Of a stretch of DNA of 64,000 nt, positions 2,736 through 43,463 are shown piece by piece (the stretch's first letter is position 1; each line of letters opens with the position of its first letter). Source of the stretch: a virus. Made by a program: the position numbers and the translations under genes. The DNA lies in the IMG/VR virus record IMGVR_UViG_3300032294_002055, positions 7,878-71,877 of that record, one strand, 5' to 3'. The notes under the pieces are model-generated. The model ran no database searches. It worked only from the letters and a program-made list of their open reading frames with translations, and was not told the DNA's origin.

Positions 2736-3363
2736 AGAAGATTACGTTCAATTATTTAATTGTATGAGCGAACCATTGAATGGTTCTAATTTACGTACAA
2801 TATTTTTGTTAATGACTAGGGCTCATTATTCTGATTCAAAGAATTTTGGGTATTTAGAAGAGCAATTAAAATGCGCGGTATGGAATTCAGATCATTCTAA
2901 ATCAGCATTAGAAATCGATCCTTCCTACCAATATGATATTAACAGAGATAACCGTAAACCGGGTATTTATGTTGGTGTAGATCAGCCTTGTCAGTTTAGT
3001 AAAGTTGACCTTGCAGCGAGGCAAGGTAATATCCCGGATAATAGCGGTTTCTTCTCAGGACAATTATTGCGCACAGCCGTAAGTTTCATTCATGTATTTG
3101 AAAGCGCAGATCAAGCTTTATTAGCGGCGGACTGCACTGCTTCATTCTTTGTTGGTATTAAGGAATCGCTACGCAATAAATTAAATCTTAGTTCTTTTGA
3201 ACCTATTTCTATTTCTCCTCCAGCCCTCATAGAAAAAGCGCCAGAAAGATTCTTTAGAGTTGACGTGATCTTCGGAATATCGTTTAATTATAGCGTGTTA
3301 GTGAATATAGAAAGTCACCGACTTAAAAAATTCGCTATTGAATTCGCGCCACAAGCGAGTTAA
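2728..3363 (+). CDS. putative tail terminator/completion protein
   Basis: Directly upstream of the sheath gene; likely start is ATG 2728, overlapping the previous stop. Confidence 0.45.
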   Translation: MNKEDYVQLFNCMSEPLNGSNLRTIFLLMTRAHYSDSKNFGYLEEQLKCAVWNSDHSKSALEIDPSYQYDINRDNRKPGIYVGVDQPCQFSKVDLAARQGNIPDNSGFFSGQLLRTAVSFIHVFESADQALLAADCTASFFVGIKESLRNKLNLSSFEPISISPPALIEKAPERFFRVDVIFGISFNYSVLVNIESHRLKKFAIEFAPQAS

Positions 3364-3419
3364 ACTTGCAAAGAATCATTTTCCCATTAAAGTATAGTAA
3401 CTTCACACCTTAGAAGAAT

Positions 3420-5762
3420 ATGCCTATCCCCAATTACGTTCGCCCGCAACTCACTATTGAGCAAATTCTGCAGCGTACCCCCGATGCTACCACGGATCGT
3501 ATTTCCGCTGTTGTTATTGGTCGCGAATATTTAATCAATCGTGTAGGCGTTACTTCAAATGTTTACAGCGTTAGTTTCAGCGCTACTGGTTATTCTGGTA
3601 CTGGTGCTACTTCTGGTATTCCTTTCAAAGTCTACGATGCGGCTTCTAGCAGCTATCAGCCTTTAGACACTTCAGTGTACAGCGTCACTGCTGGTAATAC
3701 TGATCTGTATATTCAGAATGGCGAAGGTATCCATTTGGATCTGAACCAAGCTGCTATGGATGGTGGTTCTCCTGGCGTGTGGAGAGTCAAGAGCGCGGAA
3801 AGCCCTAACGCACTTGTATTCTATTCTGCTACTGATAAAAAGTTAGTGTCTTCTTCTACTGCAGAACTTTATTCAGAACTTGATGGTCGCTCATTAGCTG
3901 TGGGTGATATTTTCTATGTTTCCGAAGGTGTTACTGCCACTCCTCGCCGTCGTACTGTAACCGCAGTAACAGCAAATGAAGTTACTCTCAGCGGTCCTAT
4001 TGTAGGTTCTACTGCAGCAACTCCAGTAACGGCAACTTTGGGCGCTACCGCATCTAACGCAACAGCTTTAACATTAGGTTCAACTGCCGGACTGACCGCA
4101 GGTCAGCCTGTTATCAGTCTTTCCGGGACTGCCTCGTTCTTCTCAGCAGGTACTTACATCTCAGCAGTTGGTTCTACTGGCGTAACGCTCAGCGCAGGTG
4201 TGACTGCTGTTAACGGGTCTACTATCAGCTTCTCAAATCTTCTGTACTCGCTTCAGTCAACTATCATAGTTAATAAAAATTTAGCTACCGATCAGTTCAC
4301 TGTTGATGTTACGAATACACAAGTTACTACTGATGCTAATCCTACAGTTGACATTGCAGAATTTGATACAGGTTCTGAAGCTCGTACGCTTAAGGACGGT
4401 CGCGGCAACCTTCTGGTTTCATACAGAGCTCTGCGCGCTCCTACATCTACCGAATCTTTAATCGAGATCTCCACTGTCTCCGATATCACGGATAAGCTGG
4501 GTACGATTGACATGGAGAATGAAATCGCCTTCGGCGCTAATGAGGCTTTCTCAGGTTCTCAAGGTAAAGTAATCTATGCTCTGCGCGTTGCGGATGACAC
4601 GACTACAGCATATACAACAGCTCTCAAGAAAATTGAGGCTACGGATATGGTGTATGCGCTGACTCCTATGACTGATAAGCTGACTGTGCAGCAGATCGTT
4701 ACTACGCACTGTGAAGCTATGTCTCGGAAGGATGTCAAAAACTTCCGTAGATGTTACGTCGGTACCGACTCCCCCGGAGAATACGCTGCGCTGGCTAGAT
4801 ATGATGGTTCTCCTATTCAAGTTGCAATTACAGTAAGTCCTTCATCTGCTCCAGTCCTTGACGTGGTTACTGCAGGTGTAAATCTTGAAACTGTAGGCCT
4901 TGTTCAAGGTGACATCGTAAAAATGATCGACTCTCTTGGTAACTACACCGGAGCCGAGTATATAATTTCTAACGTCACTGACGCTAATACCGCTTACCTT
5001 ACCACTGGTCCTGCTTCTAGCCAGACCCAGGTGTTTGCTGAGTTCTGGAAAGCTGATACTCCTGAAAGCCAAGCTGCTTATGTTGCTGATGTTTCAGCCG
5101 CATTGGGTAGTCGCCGGGCAGTGAACATATGGGTTGAAAACGGCACGCGCCTTATCGACGGTGTTCGCACTGTGATCCCAAATAAGTATGTTGCTGCTGA
5201 AGTCGCTGGTCTCCGTTCTGCTGTGATTCCTTGGCAGGGTCTGACTCTTACCGAGATCAACTCTATCACAGACGCTCCTGCTATGTATACCCGCTACACA
5301 AATACACTGCTCAACACAGTGGCTGCAGCTGGTACATTCATTGTCACCCAGGAAGCTGAAAGCGGCGGTGTATTCATCAGACACCAGCTTACTACGCAAT
5401 CAGATGCAGGTAGCCTGGCTTACGAAGATAGCATCGGTGTTTCACTTGATGCAATCTCCTTCCAAATCAAAGATGCCTTGAATGTCTTTGTGGGTCGCAA
5501 GAATGTGACTCGCCAGACACTCGAAGAAATCTACGATACAGTTTGGACAATCTTAAATGGCGCGACCACCTCAGCAGCTATTGCTGATTACGGTCCGCAG
5601 CTTAATGGATTCACCAACAAGGCTGGCGAGAGAAACAAAGTGGATGTTACCGTTCACCCAACTCTTAAAGATAGAGTTCAGGTTTACGCCAGACTCCTTA
5701 TGCCTCTGCCTCTGAATACGCTTGAAGTGATTCTTGATGCTTCAGTAGACTTCGCACTTTAA
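3420..5762 (+). CDS. tail sheath protein
   Basis: N-terminal YVRPQLTIEQ and sheath-like C-terminus (FIRHQLTT...LKDRVQVYARLLMPLPLNTLEVIL); followed by a tube-sized gene. Confidence 0.85.
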   Translation: MPIPNYVRPQLTIEQILQRTPDATTDRISAVVIGREYLINRVGVTSNVYSVSFSATGYSGTGATSGIPFKVYDAASSSYQPLDTSVYSVTAGNTDLYIQNGEGIHLDLNQAAMDGGSPGVWRVKSAESPNALVFYSATDKKLVSSSTAELYSELDGRSLAVGDIFYVSEGVTATPRRRTVTAVTANEVTLSGPIVGSTAATPVTATLGATASNATALTLGSTAGLTAGQPVISLSGTASFFSAGTYISAVGSTGVTLSAGVTAVNGSTISFSNLLYSLQSTIIVNKNLATDQFTVDVTNTQVTTDANPTVDIAEFDTGSEARTLKDGRGNLLVSYRALRAPTSTESLIEISTVSDITDKLGTIDMENEIAFGANEAFSGSQGKVIYALRVADDTTTAYTTALKKIEATDMVYALTPMTDKLTVQQIVTTHCEAMSRKDVKNFRRCYVGTDSPGEYAALARYDGSPIQVAITVSPSSAPVLDVVTAGVNLETVGLVQGDIVKMIDSLGNYTGAEYIISNVTDANTAYLTTGPASSQTQVFAEFWKADTPESQAAYVADVSAALGSRRAVNIWVENGTRLIDGVRTVIPNKYVAAEVAGLRSAVIPWQGLTLTEINSITDAPAMYTRYTNTLLNTVAAAGTFIVTQEAESGGVFIRHQLTTQSDAGSLAYEDSIGVSLDAISFQIKDALNVFVGRKNVTRQTLEEIYDTVWTILNGATTSAAIADYGPQLNGFTNKAGERNKVDVTVHPTLKDRVQVYARLLMPLPLNTLEVILDASVDFAL

Positions 5763-37458: not shown

Positions 37459-39057
37459 ATGATTGAGTACCAAAAGTTAATGAGTCATGTGTTAGAGAAT
37501 GGCGTGTACAAAATGGATAGAACTGGCACAGGTGCTATCTCTGTATTCGGTACACAGAGTCGTTACAATTTAAATGAGGGCTTCCCTCTAGTGACGACAA
37601 AGAAGATGTTTACCAGAGGCGTAATTGGCGAGCTTCTATGGTTCATAGAAGGTAATACCAATGCGCGTTACCTGGAAGAAAAATACGGAATTAAATTCTG
37701 GAAAGATTGGGCTGACCCTGAAACTGGGGAGCTTGGTCCTTTGTATGGTAAGCAGCTACGGAATATTGAGTATTCTTATTGGATAGAGCCGAGACTACGC
37801 GTTCAGCCTCCAGAAGAATTAGTTTTAACGCCTATCTTTGATAAGAATGTTGTTGTGGATTATTTGTCTGGTGAGTCGGTATATTTGGGTAAAACAATAC
37901 AAACCAAAGAATGCGGACTTTGCACAGTTATTAAAGAAATTTCAATACCTGGAGAGAGAAGCCAATTCGATGTAAAATTCCACGATACAGGTTACGTACG
38001 TCGTGTAGATTATGCAACTGTACAAACTGACGCAATTAAGGACCCATACTGTCAGTCTGTATATGGCGTAGGTTACTACGGCGAGTTCGCTGAAGACGAA
38101 CACACATCTATGTTAAAAAATGTGTGGCGTGAAATGCTGCGGCGCTGCTACAACTCTAAAAGTGATTCTTATAAAAGTTACGGAGCTAAAGGTATTCACG
38201 TAACCCCGGCGTGGCTTTGCTTCGCTACTTTCAACAAAGACGCTAGAACTTTAACGAACTGGAACTGTCGTTTAGAATATGGTGCCGAATATGAGTTGGA
38301 TAAAGATGTGCGCTATGCCGCCAATTACTACAGTAAAGAAACTTGTATGTGGTCTTCCAAGCTGGAGCAAAGCTACAACACATCGACTAATAGACCTTTC
38401 AAATGTGTAAATCCTGCAGGTGAAGAATTTTTCTTTCGTTCAGTAGGGGAAGCAAACAGAAAGTTTAATTTAAATGTTTCTGCAGTGCATCGTTGCCTAA
38501 ATGGAGAACTTCAAACGCATCACGATTGGAGTAATTTTGAGTATGTATGTGAGGAGGGTAAAGTTTGTAGGACGCGAGTGATTGATCAGCTAAAAGAGGT
38601 TATAGCTGAAATTAAGCATAACCCTAATAGTAGAAGATTAGTCATTAGTTTATATAATCCTCACGAGTTGGATAAAATGAACTTACCTCCTTGTCATGGT
38701 AGCGTAATTCAATTTTTTGTAGATGACGAAAAAAGATTGAGCTTACATATGTATCAGCGAAGTGGAGATGTATTTATAGGTGTCCCTGTAAACATTGCCA
38801 GCTACTCATTGCTGTTAATGATGGTTGCTCAGGTTACTGGTTATACACCGCATGAATTTATTCATACTATCGGTGACGCTCATTTATATTCCAATCATAT
38901 TGAGCAAGCCAAACTCCAGCTTTCCCGAGAACCTCTGGAAAGTCCTATTATGAAGATCAATCCCAATATTAAAAATATTGATGGCTTCAAATATACGGAT
39001 TTTGAATTGGTGAATTACGAATGTTATCCTGCTATCAAAGCAGAGATTGCCGTTTAA
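37459..39057 (+). CDS. thyA: thymidylate synthase with in-frame HNH endonuclease insertion
   Basis: [45 protein letters not shown]; about 270 aa longer than typical ThyA. Confidence 0.95.
37765..38577 (+). mobile_element. HNH/NUMOD-type homing endonuclease domain inserted in thyA (boundaries approximate)
   Basis: WREMLRRCY...[11 protein letters not shown]...W...LDKD...YSKETCMW...EQSYN plus NUMOD1-like [22 protein letters not shown]. Confidence 0.75.
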
Positions 39058-39076
39058 TTAACCTACTATATTTATC

Positions 39077-39106
39077 AAAGGGGTGCTCGTAACTGGGCAC
39101 CCTTTT
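39077..39106 (+). terminator. intrinsic terminator after thyA
   Basis: GGGTGCTC-GTAACT-GGGCACCC-TTTT. Confidence 0.8.
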
Positions 39107-39126
39107 GTGTTATATAAATTTGTACG
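39105..39126 (+). promoter_or_regulatory. 22-bp promoter-like repeat, copy 1
   Basis: TTGTGTTATATAAATTTGTACG, identical to 42293-42314; both copies are intergenic at the head of a transcription unit. Confidence 0.65.
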
Positions 39127-39157: not shown

Positions 39158-41155
39158 ATGTTCTTACACATCAAACAACAAGTACAGAAGCGCTTTAATG
39201 AGCTTCTGCAAAATGGTCCCGTATTTTGCGTGGACGTCGATAAGGAAACGATCTGGGAAATGTACCTCGCTGCATTCCCGGAACAATACAGACAGGAGAA
39301 TACCTGTAACTGCTGTAAATCTTTTATCCGTCAGTTCTCAGGACTGGTAGGTATTAAAGATAACAAGGTCCTTACTCTGTGGGACTTTGAATGCACCGAT
39401 CCAGAGTATACTAATTCGGTTAAGGCAATGAGGGATTATATTCTCTCCTGCAAGATCGATTCAGTTTATGTTAATTCGTTCGCCAAGCTGGGAACGGATA
39501 AAACACCGGATACAAAACGCAGTCTGGTTTGGGAGCATTATTTTATTAATCTTCCCAATAACATGGTGATGCGTGAAGAAAGAATCGGACCGCATCAAGG
39601 TAATGCTAGGGATAATAAAAATGTCCTGAAGCGTTCTCTGGATGAGCTCACTGATGAAGCAGTGAATACTGTCCTTGAGCTGATTGATCAGAATTCTCTT
39701 TACCGGGGTAACGAACATAAAACTACACTGACTGAATTCCTTAAACTTAAGGAGCAGTACAAGAAGGTTCCTAATGCTCTTCGAGATAACTTCTGCTGGG
39801 TGCAGTCTACCAAGACTCATGCTGCAGTCTGCCGTATTCGTAATACGTCTATCGGTACGCTGCTGGTAGATCTGTCTGAAGGTCGCGACCTTGATAGCGC
39901 TGTCTCTGCGTTTGAACGCGTGGTGGCTCCCGCTAACTACAAGCGCCCTACCGCGCTGGTTACACCCAGGATGATTGAACAGGCGCAGGAACGTCTGACT
40001 GAGCTGAATATGCTTGGTTCACTTGAACGTCGTATTCTGGACAGCCGCGATCTCAATGTTAATAATACATTGTTCGTGCATCGTCCATCTGGTGGCGGTG
40101 TTTCCGATATCTTCGCAGACCTGAAGAAAGACACCATTGTCAATCCTAAGAGTCTGAATAAAGTTGAGGAGATCAGCATTCAGGACTTTGTGGATAAAGT
40201 TCTGCCTACTTCCAAATCTATTAAAGTTCTTGTGGAGAATATTCACATGCCGAACTTTGTTACTTTGGTCGGCGCTAAGAACCCGGATGATCCTACCATG
40301 TTCAAGTGGGGAAATAATTATTCCTGGGCATATACAGGGGATGTGACTGACTCGATCAAAGAGCGTGTAAAAGCTGCCGGTGGTAATATCACTGGCGTTC
40401 TGCGTATCAGTTTGTCATGGCATAACCATGATGATCTGGATCTGCATGTTCATGAGCCTAAGGGTTATCACATATACTTTGCTAACAAAATGTCACTGTC
40501 TCCATCAGGCGGTATGCTGGATGTAGATATGAATGCAGGTGGCGGTACAACTCGCGAACCAGTAGAAAATATCTTTTGGTCCGGAGAACCAAAGATGGAA
40601 GGTAAGTATTCTGTTGTTGTGAATAATTACTGCCGCCGTGATAATAAAGATGGGGGCTTTGAGGTTGAGATTGAGTACAACGGTGAAATTGAAACTTTCA
40701 CTTCTAGTACCAATGCAGCCACAGATAAAAATTTTAACATTGCTGAATTTAATTACACCAAGAAAGATGGTGTTCAGTTTATTAATTCTAGCGGTAAATC
40801 TAATATCGCTAAATATAATTCCAGAGAGAAGTGGGGTGTAAAGACCGGGCAGTTTGTTCCTGTTCGTGCTATCACTCTTTCTCCTAACTTCTGGAATGAT
40901 ACATCAGGAAACAAACATTATATGTTCCTGCTGGAAGGTTGTAAATCGGATGAGAAAACTCGTCCGTTTTTCAATGAGTTCCTTAAGCCTGAGCTTAGTG
41001 CAGATCGCAAGGTCTTCGAAATCCTGGGCAGTAAGGTAAATGTAGACAAGGCGGAAGATGAGCTGTCTGGTATCGGTTTCTCCGACACCGTACGGAATCA
41101 TGTTTTCGTTGAAGTCGAAGGCACATTCAAGCGTGTCGTCAAAGTTAAGTTCTAA
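39158..41155 (+). CDS. phage protein with YfaP/DUF2135-like domain
   Basis: LRISLSWHNHDDLDLHVHEP...LDVDMNAGG...PVENIFW; N-terminal CNCCK. Confidence 0.6.
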   Translation: MFLHIKQQVQKRFNELLQNGPVFCVDVDKETIWEMYLAAFPEQYRQENTCNCCKSFIRQFSGLVGIKDNKVLTLWDFECTDPEYTNSVKAMRDYILSCKIDSVYVNSFAKLGTDKTPDTKRSLVWEHYFINLPNNMVMREERIGPHQGNARDNKNVLKRSLDELTDEAVNTVLELIDQNSLYRGNEHKTTLTEFLKLKEQYKKVPNALRDNFCWVQSTKTHAAVCRIRNTSIGTLLVDLSEGRDLDSAVSAFERVVAPANYKRPTALVTPRMIEQAQERLTELNMLGSLERRILDSRDLNVNNTLFVHRPSGGGVSDIFADLKKDTIVNPKSLNKVEEISIQDFVDKVLPTSKSIKVLVENIHMPNFVTLVGAKNPDDPTMFKWGNNYSWAYTGDVTDSIKERVKAAGGNITGVLRISLSWHNHDDLDLHVHEPKGYHIYFANKMSLSPSGGMLDVDMNAGGGTTREPVENIFWSGEPKMEGKYSVVVNNYCRRDNKDGGFEVEIEYNGEIETFTSSTNAATDKNFNIAEFNYTKKDGVQFINSSGKSNIAKYNSREKWGVKTGQFVPVRAITLSPNFWNDTSGNKHYMFLLEGCKSDEKTRPFFNEFLKPELSADRKVFEILGSKVNVDKAEDELSGIGFSDTVRNHVFVEVEGTFKRVVKVKF

Positions 41156-41596: not shown

Positions 41597-41633
41597 GCCG
41601 CCAGGAGTTAATTCTCCTGGCGGCTTTCTTTTT
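41597..41633 (+). terminator. intrinsic terminator
   Basis: GCCGCCAGGAG-TTAATT-CTCCTGGCGGC-TTTCTTTTT. Confidence 0.9.
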
Positions 41634-41637
41634 ATCT

Positions 41638-41901
41638 ATGGATTTAATCGCATCGCTTGATACCTTTGAACAAAACTTATTAAAAATATCAGAGGAAGAA
41701 AATAAGTTTCCATTAGGTCTTAGTGAAGCTGAATTTAAGGCTTCATTTGTTCCTCAATTTTTAGCTACCATGGCTGCTAATAGATTTAATGATTATTGCG
41801 CCATGGATAAACAAGAAGAAATATCTTCTTTGCCTTTTGAAGATGCTGAATTTTTAGCTGAAGAGGTTTATAAAAAATATTACGAATTTAAAAATGGATA
41901 A
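41638..41901 (+). CDS. hypothetical protein
   Basis: 87-aa ORF. Confidence 0.5.
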   Translation: MDLIASLDTFEQNLLKISEEENKFPLGLSEAEFKASFVPQFLATMAANRFNDYCAMDKQEEISSLPFEDAEFLAEEVYKKYYEFKNG

Positions 41902-42271
41902 AATTTTAAACTATATCAAAGAACAACTACAGCTTACCAAAAATCAGAAAACATATACTGATTGGGAAGAAGCTAGAAGAGAAGGAGCTGAAGGTGTTCT
42001 TGAAGATTTGCTAGAACAATTTTCAAAAGTTAATACCGAGGGCACTCAAACCAAAATCGAGTTACTGTACAACGGTGACTATCCCGGGCACCCATGTGTG
42101 CGTGTAAACGATAAATGGCTTGATTCTAAAGAAGAAGTATCTCTATGTAAATTCTTTAATGTTAACGACCTTAAAGAGTTATATGATAAAGTAGGGCTGT
42201 CCAAAGATTGGGACGGTACAATTAGCGAAGAGCATAAACCTTTTGAAGGTACGCTCTCAATTCATAAATAA
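41894..42271 (+). CDS. hypothetical protein
   Basis: 125-aa ORF overlapping the previous stop. Confidence 0.5.
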   Translation: MDKILNYIKEQLQLTKNQKTYTDWEEARREGAEGVLEDLLEQFSKVNTEGTQTKIELLYNGDYPGHPCVRVNDKWLDSKEEVSLCKFFNVNDLKELYDKVGLSKDWDGTISEEHKPFEGTLSIHK

Positions 42272-42274
42272 TAT

Positions 42275-42314
42275 TTGCAATACTTAGTATTGTTGTGTTA
42301 TATAAATTTGTACG
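42275..42314 (+). promoter_or_regulatory. promoter of the ncRNA cluster (22-bp repeat, copy 2)
   Basis: TTGCAA (42275-42280) followed by TTGTGTTATATAAATTTGTACG (42293-42314). Confidence 0.65.
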
Positions 42315-42337
42315 GCAGTTAATACCTGTTGTGCAAT

Positions 42338-42481
42338 AAGCGTGTGGCGGAATGTAAAACGCAATTTCGTAAGTATAGTGGGAAACTGACCAGCCCAACG
42401 TAACTTAGGTAATCAGTGAACTGTCAGTCTAGCTGAGAACGAAGTTGGAGTCTATTGCAGGTTCAAATCCTGCCACGCTTA
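42338..42481 (+). tRNA. tRNA-Leu-like RNA with ~65-nt structured insertion in the anticodon loop
   Basis: Acceptor AAGCGTG/CACGCTT, discriminator A, Leu-type D arm GGCGGAATGTAAAACGC, T arm GCAGG-TTCAAAT-CCTGC, anticodon stem ATTTC/GAAGT, long variable region; no encoded CCA. Confidence 0.75.
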
Positions 42482-42488
42482 AAATTAA

Positions 42489-42616
42489 ATTGCTCTTAAA
42501 GCGCCCACGGCGTACCGAATGGTATTCTGTGACGGTTACAAGGCCGAATGCCTCGACTGGGTTTACAAAGTCGGTGCTGCTCTGCGCCTTTGCAGAGAAC
42601 GTTGAGTAAGAGCAAT
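42489..42616 (+). ncRNA. twister self-cleaving ribozyme (type P1)
   Basis: P1 ATTGCTCT/AGAGCAAT, U^AA cleavage site (42497^42498), P2 AGCG/CGTT, P4 CGG/CCG with loop TTACAAGG, 3' GAGTA; both pseudoknots (CC/GG and TAC/GTA) are complementary. Confidence 0.85.
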
Positions 42617-42649
42617 ATTGGAATGATATTAGTATAATGTTATTAGAGT

Positions 42650-42785
42650 AACTTCTTGGTAATAATATAAGTCAGCGAACAGGTTCTGCAAAACTTGTGG
42701 CGTCTGACCATCCCGATGAAACAATACCCAGCACATCAACAAGTACGCAGGCATGCAGAAGTTGATTGTGTCCTAAGTTGTAGGA
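42650..42785 (+). ncRNA. unidentified structured RNA
   Basis: No long ORF; nested stems GTCAG/CTGAC, ACAGGTT/AACTTGT, GCACATCAAC/GTTGATTGTGT (or AACTTCT/AGAAGTT) and TCCTA/TAGGA. Confidence 0.4.
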
Positions 42786-42822
42786 GAGCGTCCAGGTAGA
42801 AATACCTGGGCGCTTTTCTTTT
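42786..42822. terminator. terminator closing the ncRNA cluster, possibly bidirectional
   Basis: AGCGTCCAGGTA-GAAA-TACCTGGGCGCT followed by TTTCTTTT; the convergent kinase gene stops at 42828. Confidence 0.85.
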
Positions 42823-42827
42823 ATATA

Positions 42828-43463
42828 TTATGTAATATAAGGATCTACCAGATAAGGGCGTCCTTGCGGCGAAAACATAATATTTCCTGATCCTGCAATA
42901 TCGCTTATATTAACAGGTCCTTTAGCAGTCTGCATAGTTGCAGTATTTGGTAACCCGCCTGCTCTAAAACTTTGGTATTTTTTAGCGGCAGGTATAGAAA
43001 CTCTCTCCGGGTTCAGTGTAGATTTTTGAAATCTCTGTACAAAGTCTAGCCACTGTTTTTTATTACTAGAAGGTAGTGATAAAATTTCTTTTAGAATATT
43101 ACCTGTAGGAGGTATTGGATTCAATCTTGGAATAGCATAACCTCTTCCACCTCTAATTACAGATAGAATATTCGGGAAGATATCCGAAGATGAAAATAGG
43201 TTTTCTATAGCCTTAATTCTTTTCTCATTAATAGGCGATGCCTTAGATGAAATTAATTTTAATGCTGAAGGACCTTGTCCTCCAGTAAAGCTTTCATAAA
43301 CTCGCCCTTCTCCACCAGCGCCAAGCATCTTCGGTTTCCCGGATATGTCTTTTAATAATCTTGTTTTATTAACAGGAAGAGCAGCGATTAGTTTCTCTAT
43401 ACTCTGTGGCGACATTCCTTTAGCCAAAGCACGAACCCAAGCAGGTGATGCCTGTTTATTCAT
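42828..43463 (-). CDS. protein kinase-like protein
   Basis: Gly loop LGAGGEGRVY, SALKL lysine, catalytic-loop-like SDIAGSGNIM, DFG-equivalent LVDP; likely start MNKQAS at 43463. Confidence 0.7.
   Translation of the reverse strand: MNKQASPAWVRALAKGMSPQSIEKLIAALPVNKTRLLKDISGKPKMLGAGGEGRVYESFTGGQGPSALKLISSKASPINEKRIKAIENLFSSSDIFPNILSVIRGGRGYAIPRLNPIPPTGNILKEILSLPSSNKKQWLDFVQRFQKSTLNPERVSIPAAKKYQSFRAGGLPNTATMQTAKGPVNISDIAGSGNIMFSPQGRPYLVDPYIT

Follow-up and report, generated by a model that had tools for sequence, protein, structure and literature searches.

Twister ribozymes are self-cleaving RNAs with essential stems P1, P2 and P4, optional stems P0, P3 and P5, and two pseudoknots, T1 and T2 (PMC5408937). 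They cleave an N-A step, usually U-A, beside P1, with a conserved A 3' of the site. P2 has four pairs, and P4, described as three pairs plus a G-C, is extended by that invariant G-C and a U/A pair. T2 joins the dinucleotide after P2 to two bases of loop L4, and T1 links L4 to L1 through three Watson-Crick pairs and an A/A pair (PMC5408937). In the rice ribozyme Osa-1-4, T2 consists of G13-C31 and C14-G30, T1 pairs C25 and C26 with guanines including G48, A46 is essential, and double mutants in which pseudoknot pairs are swapped remain active (PMC5113685). G45 is the general base and the cut falls between U6 and A7 (PMC6154101); P1 is reported to be dispensable for catalysis (PMC5113685; PMC6154101), and P5 is found in about 1% of twisters (PMC6154101). 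What most genomic self-cleaving ribozymes do biologically has yet to be settled (PMC6765202). Here, we describe a predicted twister variant inside a non-coding RNA unit of an uncultured phage. The window, i.e., the whole stretch of DNA that was analyzed, covers 64 kb of the 71.9-kb IMG/VR virus record IMGVR_UViG_3300032294_002055, which is estimated to be about 40% complete, and its gene content consists of phage genes. The RNA unit occupies positions 42293-42828, between an open reading frame (ORF) of 125 amino acids (aa) that ends at 42271 and a convergent 242-aa ORF that ends at 42828, and comprises, in this order, a promoter-like 22-mer, a leader hairpin, a tRNA-shaped RNA, a twister-shaped RNA, a further 3' RNA and a terminator (Table 1). 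We estimate a probability of roughly 65% that the unit is a single transcript with an exchangeable cargo, in which a self-cutting twister frees both the cargo and a conserved 3' RNA.

Table 1. Elements of the RNA unit, RNA-library contigs and loci used for comparison; positions refer to the window.
Feature	Position	Strand	Remarks
Promoter-like 22-mer	42293-42314	+	contains TATAAAT; exact second copy at 39105-39126
5' leader hairpin	42308-42336	+	10 pairs and a possible terminal U-A; 7-nt loop
tRNA-frame RNA	42338-42481	+	acceptor stem, leucine-tRNA-like D arm, T arm, discriminator-position A42481
Variant twister-type ribozyme (predicted)	42490-42615	+	about 126 nt; type P1 with P3, P5 and extra hairpin
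P1	42490-42496 / 42609-42615	+	
Predicted scissile bond	U42497 / A42498, then A42499	+	UAA invariant, 6/6
P2	42500-42503 / 42600-42603	+	four pairs A-U, G-U, C-G, G-C; invariant
T2 pseudoknot	CC 42504-42505 with GG 42542-42543	+	invariant in family
P3	42506-42531	+	
P4	42533-42535 / 42544-42546	+	2 pairs and closing G-C
L4	42536-42543	+	8 nt, U-UAC-A-A-GG, of the form U-NNN-A-A-NN
T1 pseudoknot	UAC 42537-42539 with GUA 42606-42608	+	abuts P1; invariant in family
P5	42550-42577	+	
Extra hairpin between P5 and P2	42580-42597	+	
L1 3' strand	G42604, A42605, then GUA 42606-42608	+	form G-A-NNN
Conserved 3' RNA	42616-42781	+	from alignment and consensus folding of five sequences
3' RNA hairpin	42671-42708	+	covarying; invariant loop CUGCAA (42686-42691)
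3' RNA motif GAAACAA	within 42616-42781	+	invariant
3' RNA long-range helix	42721-42725 / 42777-42781	+	beside terminator
Intrinsic terminator	42782-42828 (stem-loop 42782-42819)	+	17-bp stem, 4-nt loop, U run
RNA-library contig X1	42509-42732		one study
RNA-library contig X5	42509-42736		second study, same as X4
RNA-library contig X4	42520-42756		second study, same as X5
Related loci			L005 (= L013 contig), L004 (= L017 contig), L006 (= L020, L025 contig), L019, L026
Frame-family loci (phage contigs)			L029, L034, L036, L039, L050, L052, L053, L072, L080, L093/L128, L094, L098 (two copies), L109, L124, L135, L140, L142, L155, L163

The sequence of the twister-shaped element has the stem and loop order of the class, the U-A site followed by A, the four-pair P2, both pseudoknots and the G-A of L1. 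G42604 and A42605 stand at the published places of the conserved L1 G and A and are invariant in all six sequences of the family, and A42540 and A42605 occupy the places of the A/A pair beside T1. The P4/L4 consensus of the Rfam family Twister-P5 (CGG UCcCAAGC CCG) aligns to CGG UUACAAGG CCG at 42527-42547. Set against this consensus, L4 carries UAC for T1, with GUA as partner in L1, and GG for T2 (GC in the consensus), with CC after P2 as partner. Three of the five pseudoknot pairs differ from the consensus and are compensated on both sides, and since the departures occur on both partners, both pseudoknots appear to be retained. The element as a whole has a fold energy of z = -3.39. A descriptor written from the literature features, with P4 relaxed to two pairs plus the G-C, matched once in the 64 kb on both strands (42493-42612) and once in each of five homologues, and had no match in 300 shuffles of the window that kept its dinucleotide composition. 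A looser version that accepts any base before AA matched homologous loci only among 168 loci (1.46 Mb) and had no match in the small-RNA region of phage T5. In a six-sequence alignment with a structure that includes both pseudoknots, 96.1% of the cells are paired; double-sided changes occur in 13 pairs, a number as high in 0 of 500 shuffles, and slid controls give 1-4 such pairs. This covariation is confined to P3 (8 of 10 pairs) and P5 (5 of 8 pairs). The architecture gives good support to the twister assignment, and the element is, as far as its predicted fold goes, a variant of this known class for which cleavage is predicted.

A number of points weigh against this assignment and against the predicted cut. 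A first, stricter descriptor (three-pair P4 plus G-C) found nothing, which makes the shortened P4 a genuine deviation; as the descriptor was adjusted after the sequence was known, the chance figures given above are somewhat optimistic. Twister-P5 matches only partially (10.3 bits, E = 7, 151-nt query), neither RF03160, RF02684 nor the related twister models reach their gathering scores, and a search with RF03160 (twister-P1) over the whole record gave no match at the locus. P2, P4, T1, T2, the extra hairpin and the inner part of P1 are without variation in the six sequences, so that core covariation is lacking; because these parts never vary, the family neither supports nor contradicts the core stems and pseudoknots. 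The outer three P1 pairs are broken in one relative (L004), the extra hairpin falls outside the twister description in the excerpts of the published work, and only six loci were found, in IMG/VR and one scan of metagenomes. Finally, assembled RNA-library contigs cannot show RNA ends, and their start at 42509, discussed below, may stem from the assembly breaking off at the variable P3. A hepatitis delta virus (HDV)-like reading was tried and rejected. The only match was drz-agam-2-2, whose 12.4 bits (E = 1.1) fall far short of the gathering score of 38, and the conserved long-range helix sits at the place of the HDV P2, which would put the HDV P1 in non-conserved sequence.

Relatives of the unit come from a protein-anchored search, from scans of IMG/VR for DNA patterns and from one scan of metagenomes, and chance matches in coding DNA (L011, L012, L014-L016, L018, L021-L024 and L027) were dropped. 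The promoter-like motif, the leader hairpin and the core of about 130 nt are present in all five related loci. A related 3' RNA and terminator follow in the four loci that reach that far (L004, L005, L006 and L019); the fifth, L026, is a 1,120-nt contig that ends inside the 3' RNA. The arrangement is the same in these four, running from promoter and leader through the slot to the twister, the 3' RNA and the terminator, and the twister core is invariant in the six phages, whose flanking RNA has diverged. The slot between leader and twister is not conserved, and a tRNA-shaped RNA fills it in one of the six loci, i.e., that of the window. In L005, L019 and L026, it is taken by another RNA with covariation, which finishes on a hairpin of 10 bp whose 7-nt loop resembles a T-loop. 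L004 has a third type of RNA there, and L006 (6768-7122) has two ORFs, the first of 67 aa and the second, a hydrophobic one, of 54 aa, ending one base before P1. The conserved unit is therefore made up of promoter, leader, twister, 3' RNA and terminator, with a swappable upstream slot. The earlier note on this DNA had counted the tRNA mimic among the elements of the unit and had looked to related phages for conservation of their order; the layout from promoter to terminator stands, and the mimic as a constant member does not. As a side observation, the cargo of L005 (8690-8790) and its equivalents in L019 and L026 consist of two covarying hairpins followed by the 10-bp hairpin with the loop UUCAAUC or variants of it (z = -4.22), and this type of RNA has no match among the Rfam families.

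RNA libraries bear on the downstream half of the unit. Of the words sampled from a 1.8-kb stretch, six RNA-labelled runs contain 5-8%; four were mapped, of which one (X3) is probably DNA and was excluded from the expression evidence. In the other three (X1, X4 and X5), cover is limited to 42509-42756 and is zero on 41600-42508 and 42757-43400, including the flanking genes, where uncovered parts of the stretch count as no evidence of absence. The contigs, which resemble the window at 95-99% or higher, come from two studies, and this presence in RNA libraries agrees with the transcription supposed in the earlier note. Ribozyme and 3' RNA thus occur as RNA well above their neighbors. Contigs of both studies start at 42509, 11 nt past the predicted cut, and there are no joints and no loose end at this position. 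This is a weak hint of an RNA end near the predicted cut; as contigs cannot show ends, we take the library data only as presence of RNA. Ribozyme and 3' RNA are contiguous in these contigs, as is expected whether or not the element cuts.

The conserved 3' RNA, together with the terminator, shows compensatory changes in 15 of 36 predicted pairs, chiefly in the CUGCAA hairpin and the terminator; on its own it is indistinguishable from shuffles by energy (z = -0.29), and an Rfam search gave no family match for it. Its loop CUGCAA is perfectly complementary to an invariant UUGCAG (42590-42595) in the extra hairpin of the twister-shaped element, which may point to a loop-helix contact or to an alternative fold. 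The terminator stem covaries among the relatives, and weak Rfam matches to ctRNA at this place are terminator-shaped. At the other end of the unit, the 19-nt core of the promoter-like 22-mer has two copies in the window, a number reached in 0 of 100 shuffles, and the motif is kept upstream of the unit in all five relatives. A generic sigma-70 scan did not include the 22-mer at 42293-42314 among its calls. The leader hairpin has a minimum free energy of -11.9 kcal/mol (z = -3.23) and stands at the same place in all related loci, with a 10-bp stem and a GUAA loop in the relatives. The interval as a whole folds with z = -6.64, a value equalled by 0 of 100 shuffles, and the longest ORFs that overlap it are 58 aa (minus strand, 42222-42398) and 54 aa (plus strand, 42445-42609). 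What the earlier note had read from the letters is upheld in this way, with positions that are exact or off by a few bases, namely the lack of a long ORF, the promoter-like 22-mer, the leader hairpin, the further structured segment and the strong terminator; its twister with a site 16 nt past the discriminator agrees with the descriptor, the P4/L4 match and the covariation of P3 and P5, and remains a prediction of the sequence analysis.

The upstream RNA in the window has a 7-bp acceptor stem (AAGCGUG/CACGCUU, 42338-42344 / 42474-42480) and a T arm at 42457-42473 with a 5-bp stem and the loop UUCAAAU. Some 77-90 nt of other structure replace the anticodon arm, no CCA is encoded, and the RNA does not pass as a cloverleaf with a 7-nt anticodon loop. 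By energy it is indistinguishable from shuffles (z = -1.27), and default ARAGORN finds no tRNA in the whole window. The Rfam scan proposed in the earlier note found zero matches at gathering score in the whole window and left, besides the partial Twister-P5 match, a partial match of 15.1 bits (E = 4.3) of this RNA to the tRNA family RF00005, limited to the T-arm half and below the gathering score of 29 bits. The 22-mer formed by the T arm and the acceptor 3' strand recurs unchanged in 21 loci of IMG/VR. ARAGORN calls tRNAs in 15 of them (13 Pro and 2 CUA suppressors), four without an ARAGORN gene (L029, L034, L036 and L039) belong to the family described next and also share the 5' acceptor and D-arm sequence, and two (L031 and L044) were assigned to neither. 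The CUA suppressor tRNAs (ARAGORN 'Pyl') lie at L033 10511-10587 and L045 5015-5091, and their acceptor stem and T arm are of the frame-family type.

A scan with a 14-mer of the D arm gave at least 117 loci, many of them necessarily chance matches, which were filtered for a fully paired acceptor stem (7 of 7) together with a T arm. This leaves a family of at least 19 distinct RNAs of 82-257 nt overall, with a near-constant tRNA frame around unrelated middles of very different length. As the filter demanded pairing of the acceptor and T stems, this pairing is no independent evidence; L036 and L039 were found by eye and stand outside the 19, and a genuine tRNA-Leu (L047) that also passed the filter is not counted. 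The likeness of the D arm to that of leucine tRNAs is drawn from this gene and from the general features of such tRNAs. Among the 15 frame-family loci searched (16 loci in all, one of them L039), five reach the Rfam tRNA gathering score; these are the shorter members (32-36 bits), in which the insert replaces the anticodon loop. A 20-mer of the frame occurs in only three contigs of a collection of 185,579 prokaryote genomes, all three in metagenome-assembled genomes. Among the loci examined with the descriptor, no twister lies 3' of any other family member. One contig that carries a frame RNA (L135) also encodes a transfer-messenger RNA (3202-3532, minus strand, 117.6 bits). We regard 42338-42481 as a non-decoding tRNA-frame RNA, a view that follows from the failure, at the level of the family, of the intron reading discussed below and that agrees with the leucine-tRNA-like, non-decoding RNA of the earlier note. 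The kind of RNA appears to be already known, albeit unexplained, from RNA1 and RNA2 of phage T5. With the ribozyme a twister-class variant and the upstream RNA of the T5 kind, the parts of the system that the note could not match to a described family are of known kinds, in a new arrangement.

The reading that we prefer can be followed along the transcript. A single RNA of about 520 nt would run from the promoter-like 22-mer to the terminator, and its start just past TATAAAT would place the leader hairpin at the very 5' end, where it may be protective. The exchangeable cargo comes next, here a tRNA-frame RNA without a usable anticodon arm that RNase P may process at 42338. The twister would then cut itself co-transcriptionally between U42497 and A42498. 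The 5' product would be the cargo RNA, whose hairpin or tRNA-like end would carry a 16-nt tail closed by a 2',3'-cyclic phosphate; the 3' product, of about 325 nt, would have a 5'-hydroxyl buried in the ribozyme fold, the conserved RNA body and the terminator end. Both products would gain defined, nuclease-resistant ends. Such ends slow bacterial exonucleases and 5'-end-dependent decay. Because twister and 3' RNA are constant while the slot varies, even to the ORFs of L006, the ribozyme most likely serves mainly to separate the conserved 3' RNA from its changing upstream neighbor and to define the ends of both products.

Would the same data be explained without a cut? The twister-shaped element could be a structural 5' domain, binding a protein or blocking nucleases, of a non-coding RNA of about 330 nt that descends from a twister. 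The failure of the Rfam twister models, the shortened P4 and the extra hairpin between P5 and P2 speak for this, as do the different bases at the positions of G13 and G48, where single substitutions are lethal in the rice ribozyme (PMC5113685). Yet all features that the cited papers link to catalysis are present, among them the U-A-A of the cleavage site and the G and A that open the L1 3' strand, every changed position is compensated on the partner side, and the core has stayed invariant in six phages with diverged flanking RNA; the joined RNA contigs are predicted by both readings. On balance, we consider a non-cutting element unlikely. It is hardly credible that the interval is an ordinary untranslated region or a set of small protein genes with incidental folds. 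The 54-aa and 58-aa ORFs would fit such genes, and the slot of L006 does hold two small ORFs, but the substitutions in the relatives are compensatory in stems rather than codon-like, the 54-aa frame crosses a ribozyme core that never varies as well as the covarying stems P3 and P5, shuffles of the interval fold much less well (z = -6.64), and the RNA cover lies only on the non-coding part.

The upstream RNA could also be a tRNA-Leu(GAG) with a removable insert of 63 nt, and the twister a cutter of its 3' trailer in the manner of theta ribozymes. When introns are allowed, ARAGORN indeed gives an 83-nt tRNA-Leu(GAG) by taking 63 nt out between anticodon stem and loop, and there is an A at the discriminator position. 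Precedents exist in theta ribozymes, proposed to trim the trailers of phage tRNAs (PMC10879173), and in Lak megaphage tRNAs with unexplained introns (PMC6784885). Against this, a reading as stem, insert, 7-nt loop and stem fits only 3 of the 19 family members and also arises in 11 of 200 shuffles of the RNA's own middle, and the intron calls in the family spread over eight amino acids among 11 calls, with differing insert positions. The missing CCA, the 16-nt tail with a cyclic phosphate that the predicted cut would leave, and the presence of a tRNA-frame RNA in the slot of one of the six loci all argue in the same direction. We also know of no bacterial splicing route for a 63-nt insert. An intron-containing tRNA-Leu is unsupported at the family level, and we hold this explanation to be quite improbable; insulation and end definition of the 3' RNA, together with release of the cargo, are favored over trimming of a tRNA trailer as the primary role of the ribozyme. 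A further step would see the unit as a natural 'ribozyme-insulated' RNA cassette, in which twister, 3' RNA and terminator are constant and phages swap tRNA-frame RNAs, T-loop minihelices or ORFs as cargo. This more far-reaching idea is tentative and, in our judgment, doubtful. If true, tRNA-frame RNAs would be a phage-only scaffold that displays variable inserts, e.g., as decoys against defenses or as guides, and that the twister frees with protected ends; the role of bacterial and phage twisters would then be modular RNA maturation in phage small-RNA operons.

The neighboring genes include SbcCD-like nuclease subunits, a thymidylate synthase and a 665-aa protein (39158-41155). The latter shares 45% identity with proteins from Serratia phage phiMAM1 and further Ackermannviridae; all 542 matching records are below 60% identity. 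It belongs to PHROG 1735 and has no sequence match in Pfam, NCBIfam or the PDB. In phiMAM1, the closest named relative by this protein, the syntenic place is filled with protein genes without a gap, and a blastn search of 42200-42900 against 50,697 phage records gave no match. The second copy of the 22-mer sits upstream of the 665-aa gene and, together with the terminator-shaped hairpin before it, lies in 39069-39126. Because they have this promoter-like sequence in common, the 665-aa gene and the RNA unit may be co-regulated. A 532-aa ORF at 37459-39057 (plus strand) is the thymidylate synthase; two ThyA stretches flank an in-frame region (about residues 139-385) that resembles an HNH/I-HmuI homing endonuclease and may represent either an insertion or an intron that is read through. 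In the 72-kb record, a search for the Pfam RNA ligase families PF09511 and PF09414 and for RtcB (PF01139) had no match; with the record about 40% complete and PF09511 silent in the controls as well, this negative carries no information.

The locus places a predicted twister at a defined position within a short unit that has a promoter and a terminator of its own, with an exchangeable cargo on one side and a conserved RNA on the other, the latter visible in environmental RNA libraries. It is thus a natural setting for asking what such ribozymes do. Since the unit is short and the twister stands between cargo and conserved RNA, the hypothesis that the ribozyme uncouples two RNAs and sets their ends can be tested with simple constructs. 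The locus also ties a predicted ribozyme to a large, uncharacterized family of phage tRNA-frame RNAs and shows that standard RNA-family models overlook twisters with co-varied pseudoknots.

Compared with the twister of type P1 (RF03160; PMC5408937, PMC6154101; PMC5113685), the element has the same order P1-L1-P2-L2-P3-P4-L4-P5-P2'-L1'-P1', the U-A site, the 4-bp P2, the positions and lengths of the pseudoknots, the G-C that closes L4, the U...A-A frame of L4 and the G-A that opens the 3' strand of L1. It differs in the bases of three of the five pseudoknot pairs, in a P4 that is one pair shorter, in the joint presence of P5 and P3 followed by a further hairpin, in its length of about 126 nt, in scoring below every Rfam twister threshold, and in its setting inside a non-coding RNA unit of a lytic-type phage. 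The closest annotated relatives of the tRNA-shaped RNA are RNA1 and RNA2 of phage T5 (NC_005859), annotated as 'tRNA-like stable RNA with unknown functions'. They likewise measure about 125-145 nt, have paired ends, a T arm and a D arm like that of leucine tRNA around a large non-tRNA middle, and are encoded among phage small-RNA genes, with the RNA1 frame of the same kind; the likeness rests on shared frame motifs. Unlike in T5, where the descriptor finds no twister in the region, the RNA here is followed by a predicted one, and its frame is near-constant across many unrelated phage contigs. Theta ribozymes, minimal HDV-like ribozymes of gut phages (PMC10879173), resemble the twister-shaped element in lying directly 3' of a tRNA-shaped RNA and in being proposed to define its 3' end. 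They are of another class and cut at their own 5' edge, whereas the element here would leave a 16-nt tail on an RNA that appears to be non-decoding; the word 'twister' does not occur in that paper. The Lak megaphage tRNAs with 'enigmatic introns' (PMC6784885) are similarly overlong phage tRNA-shaped genes with inserts in the anticodon region, but have an assignable anticodon after intron removal, a reading that fits 3 of the 19 family members here. Literature searches aimed at twisters that act on phage tRNAs or tRNA-like RNAs gave no paper with such an arrangement, as judged from the listings and, for PMC6154101, PMC6765202, PMC8782182 and PMC10879173, from excerpts; supplementary lists, which lie outside this scope, may hold relevant ones. 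What the locus adds to these systems is a variant with compensated pseudoknots that the family models miss, the elaboration with P3, P5 and an extra hairpin, and the cassette layout with RNA evidence.

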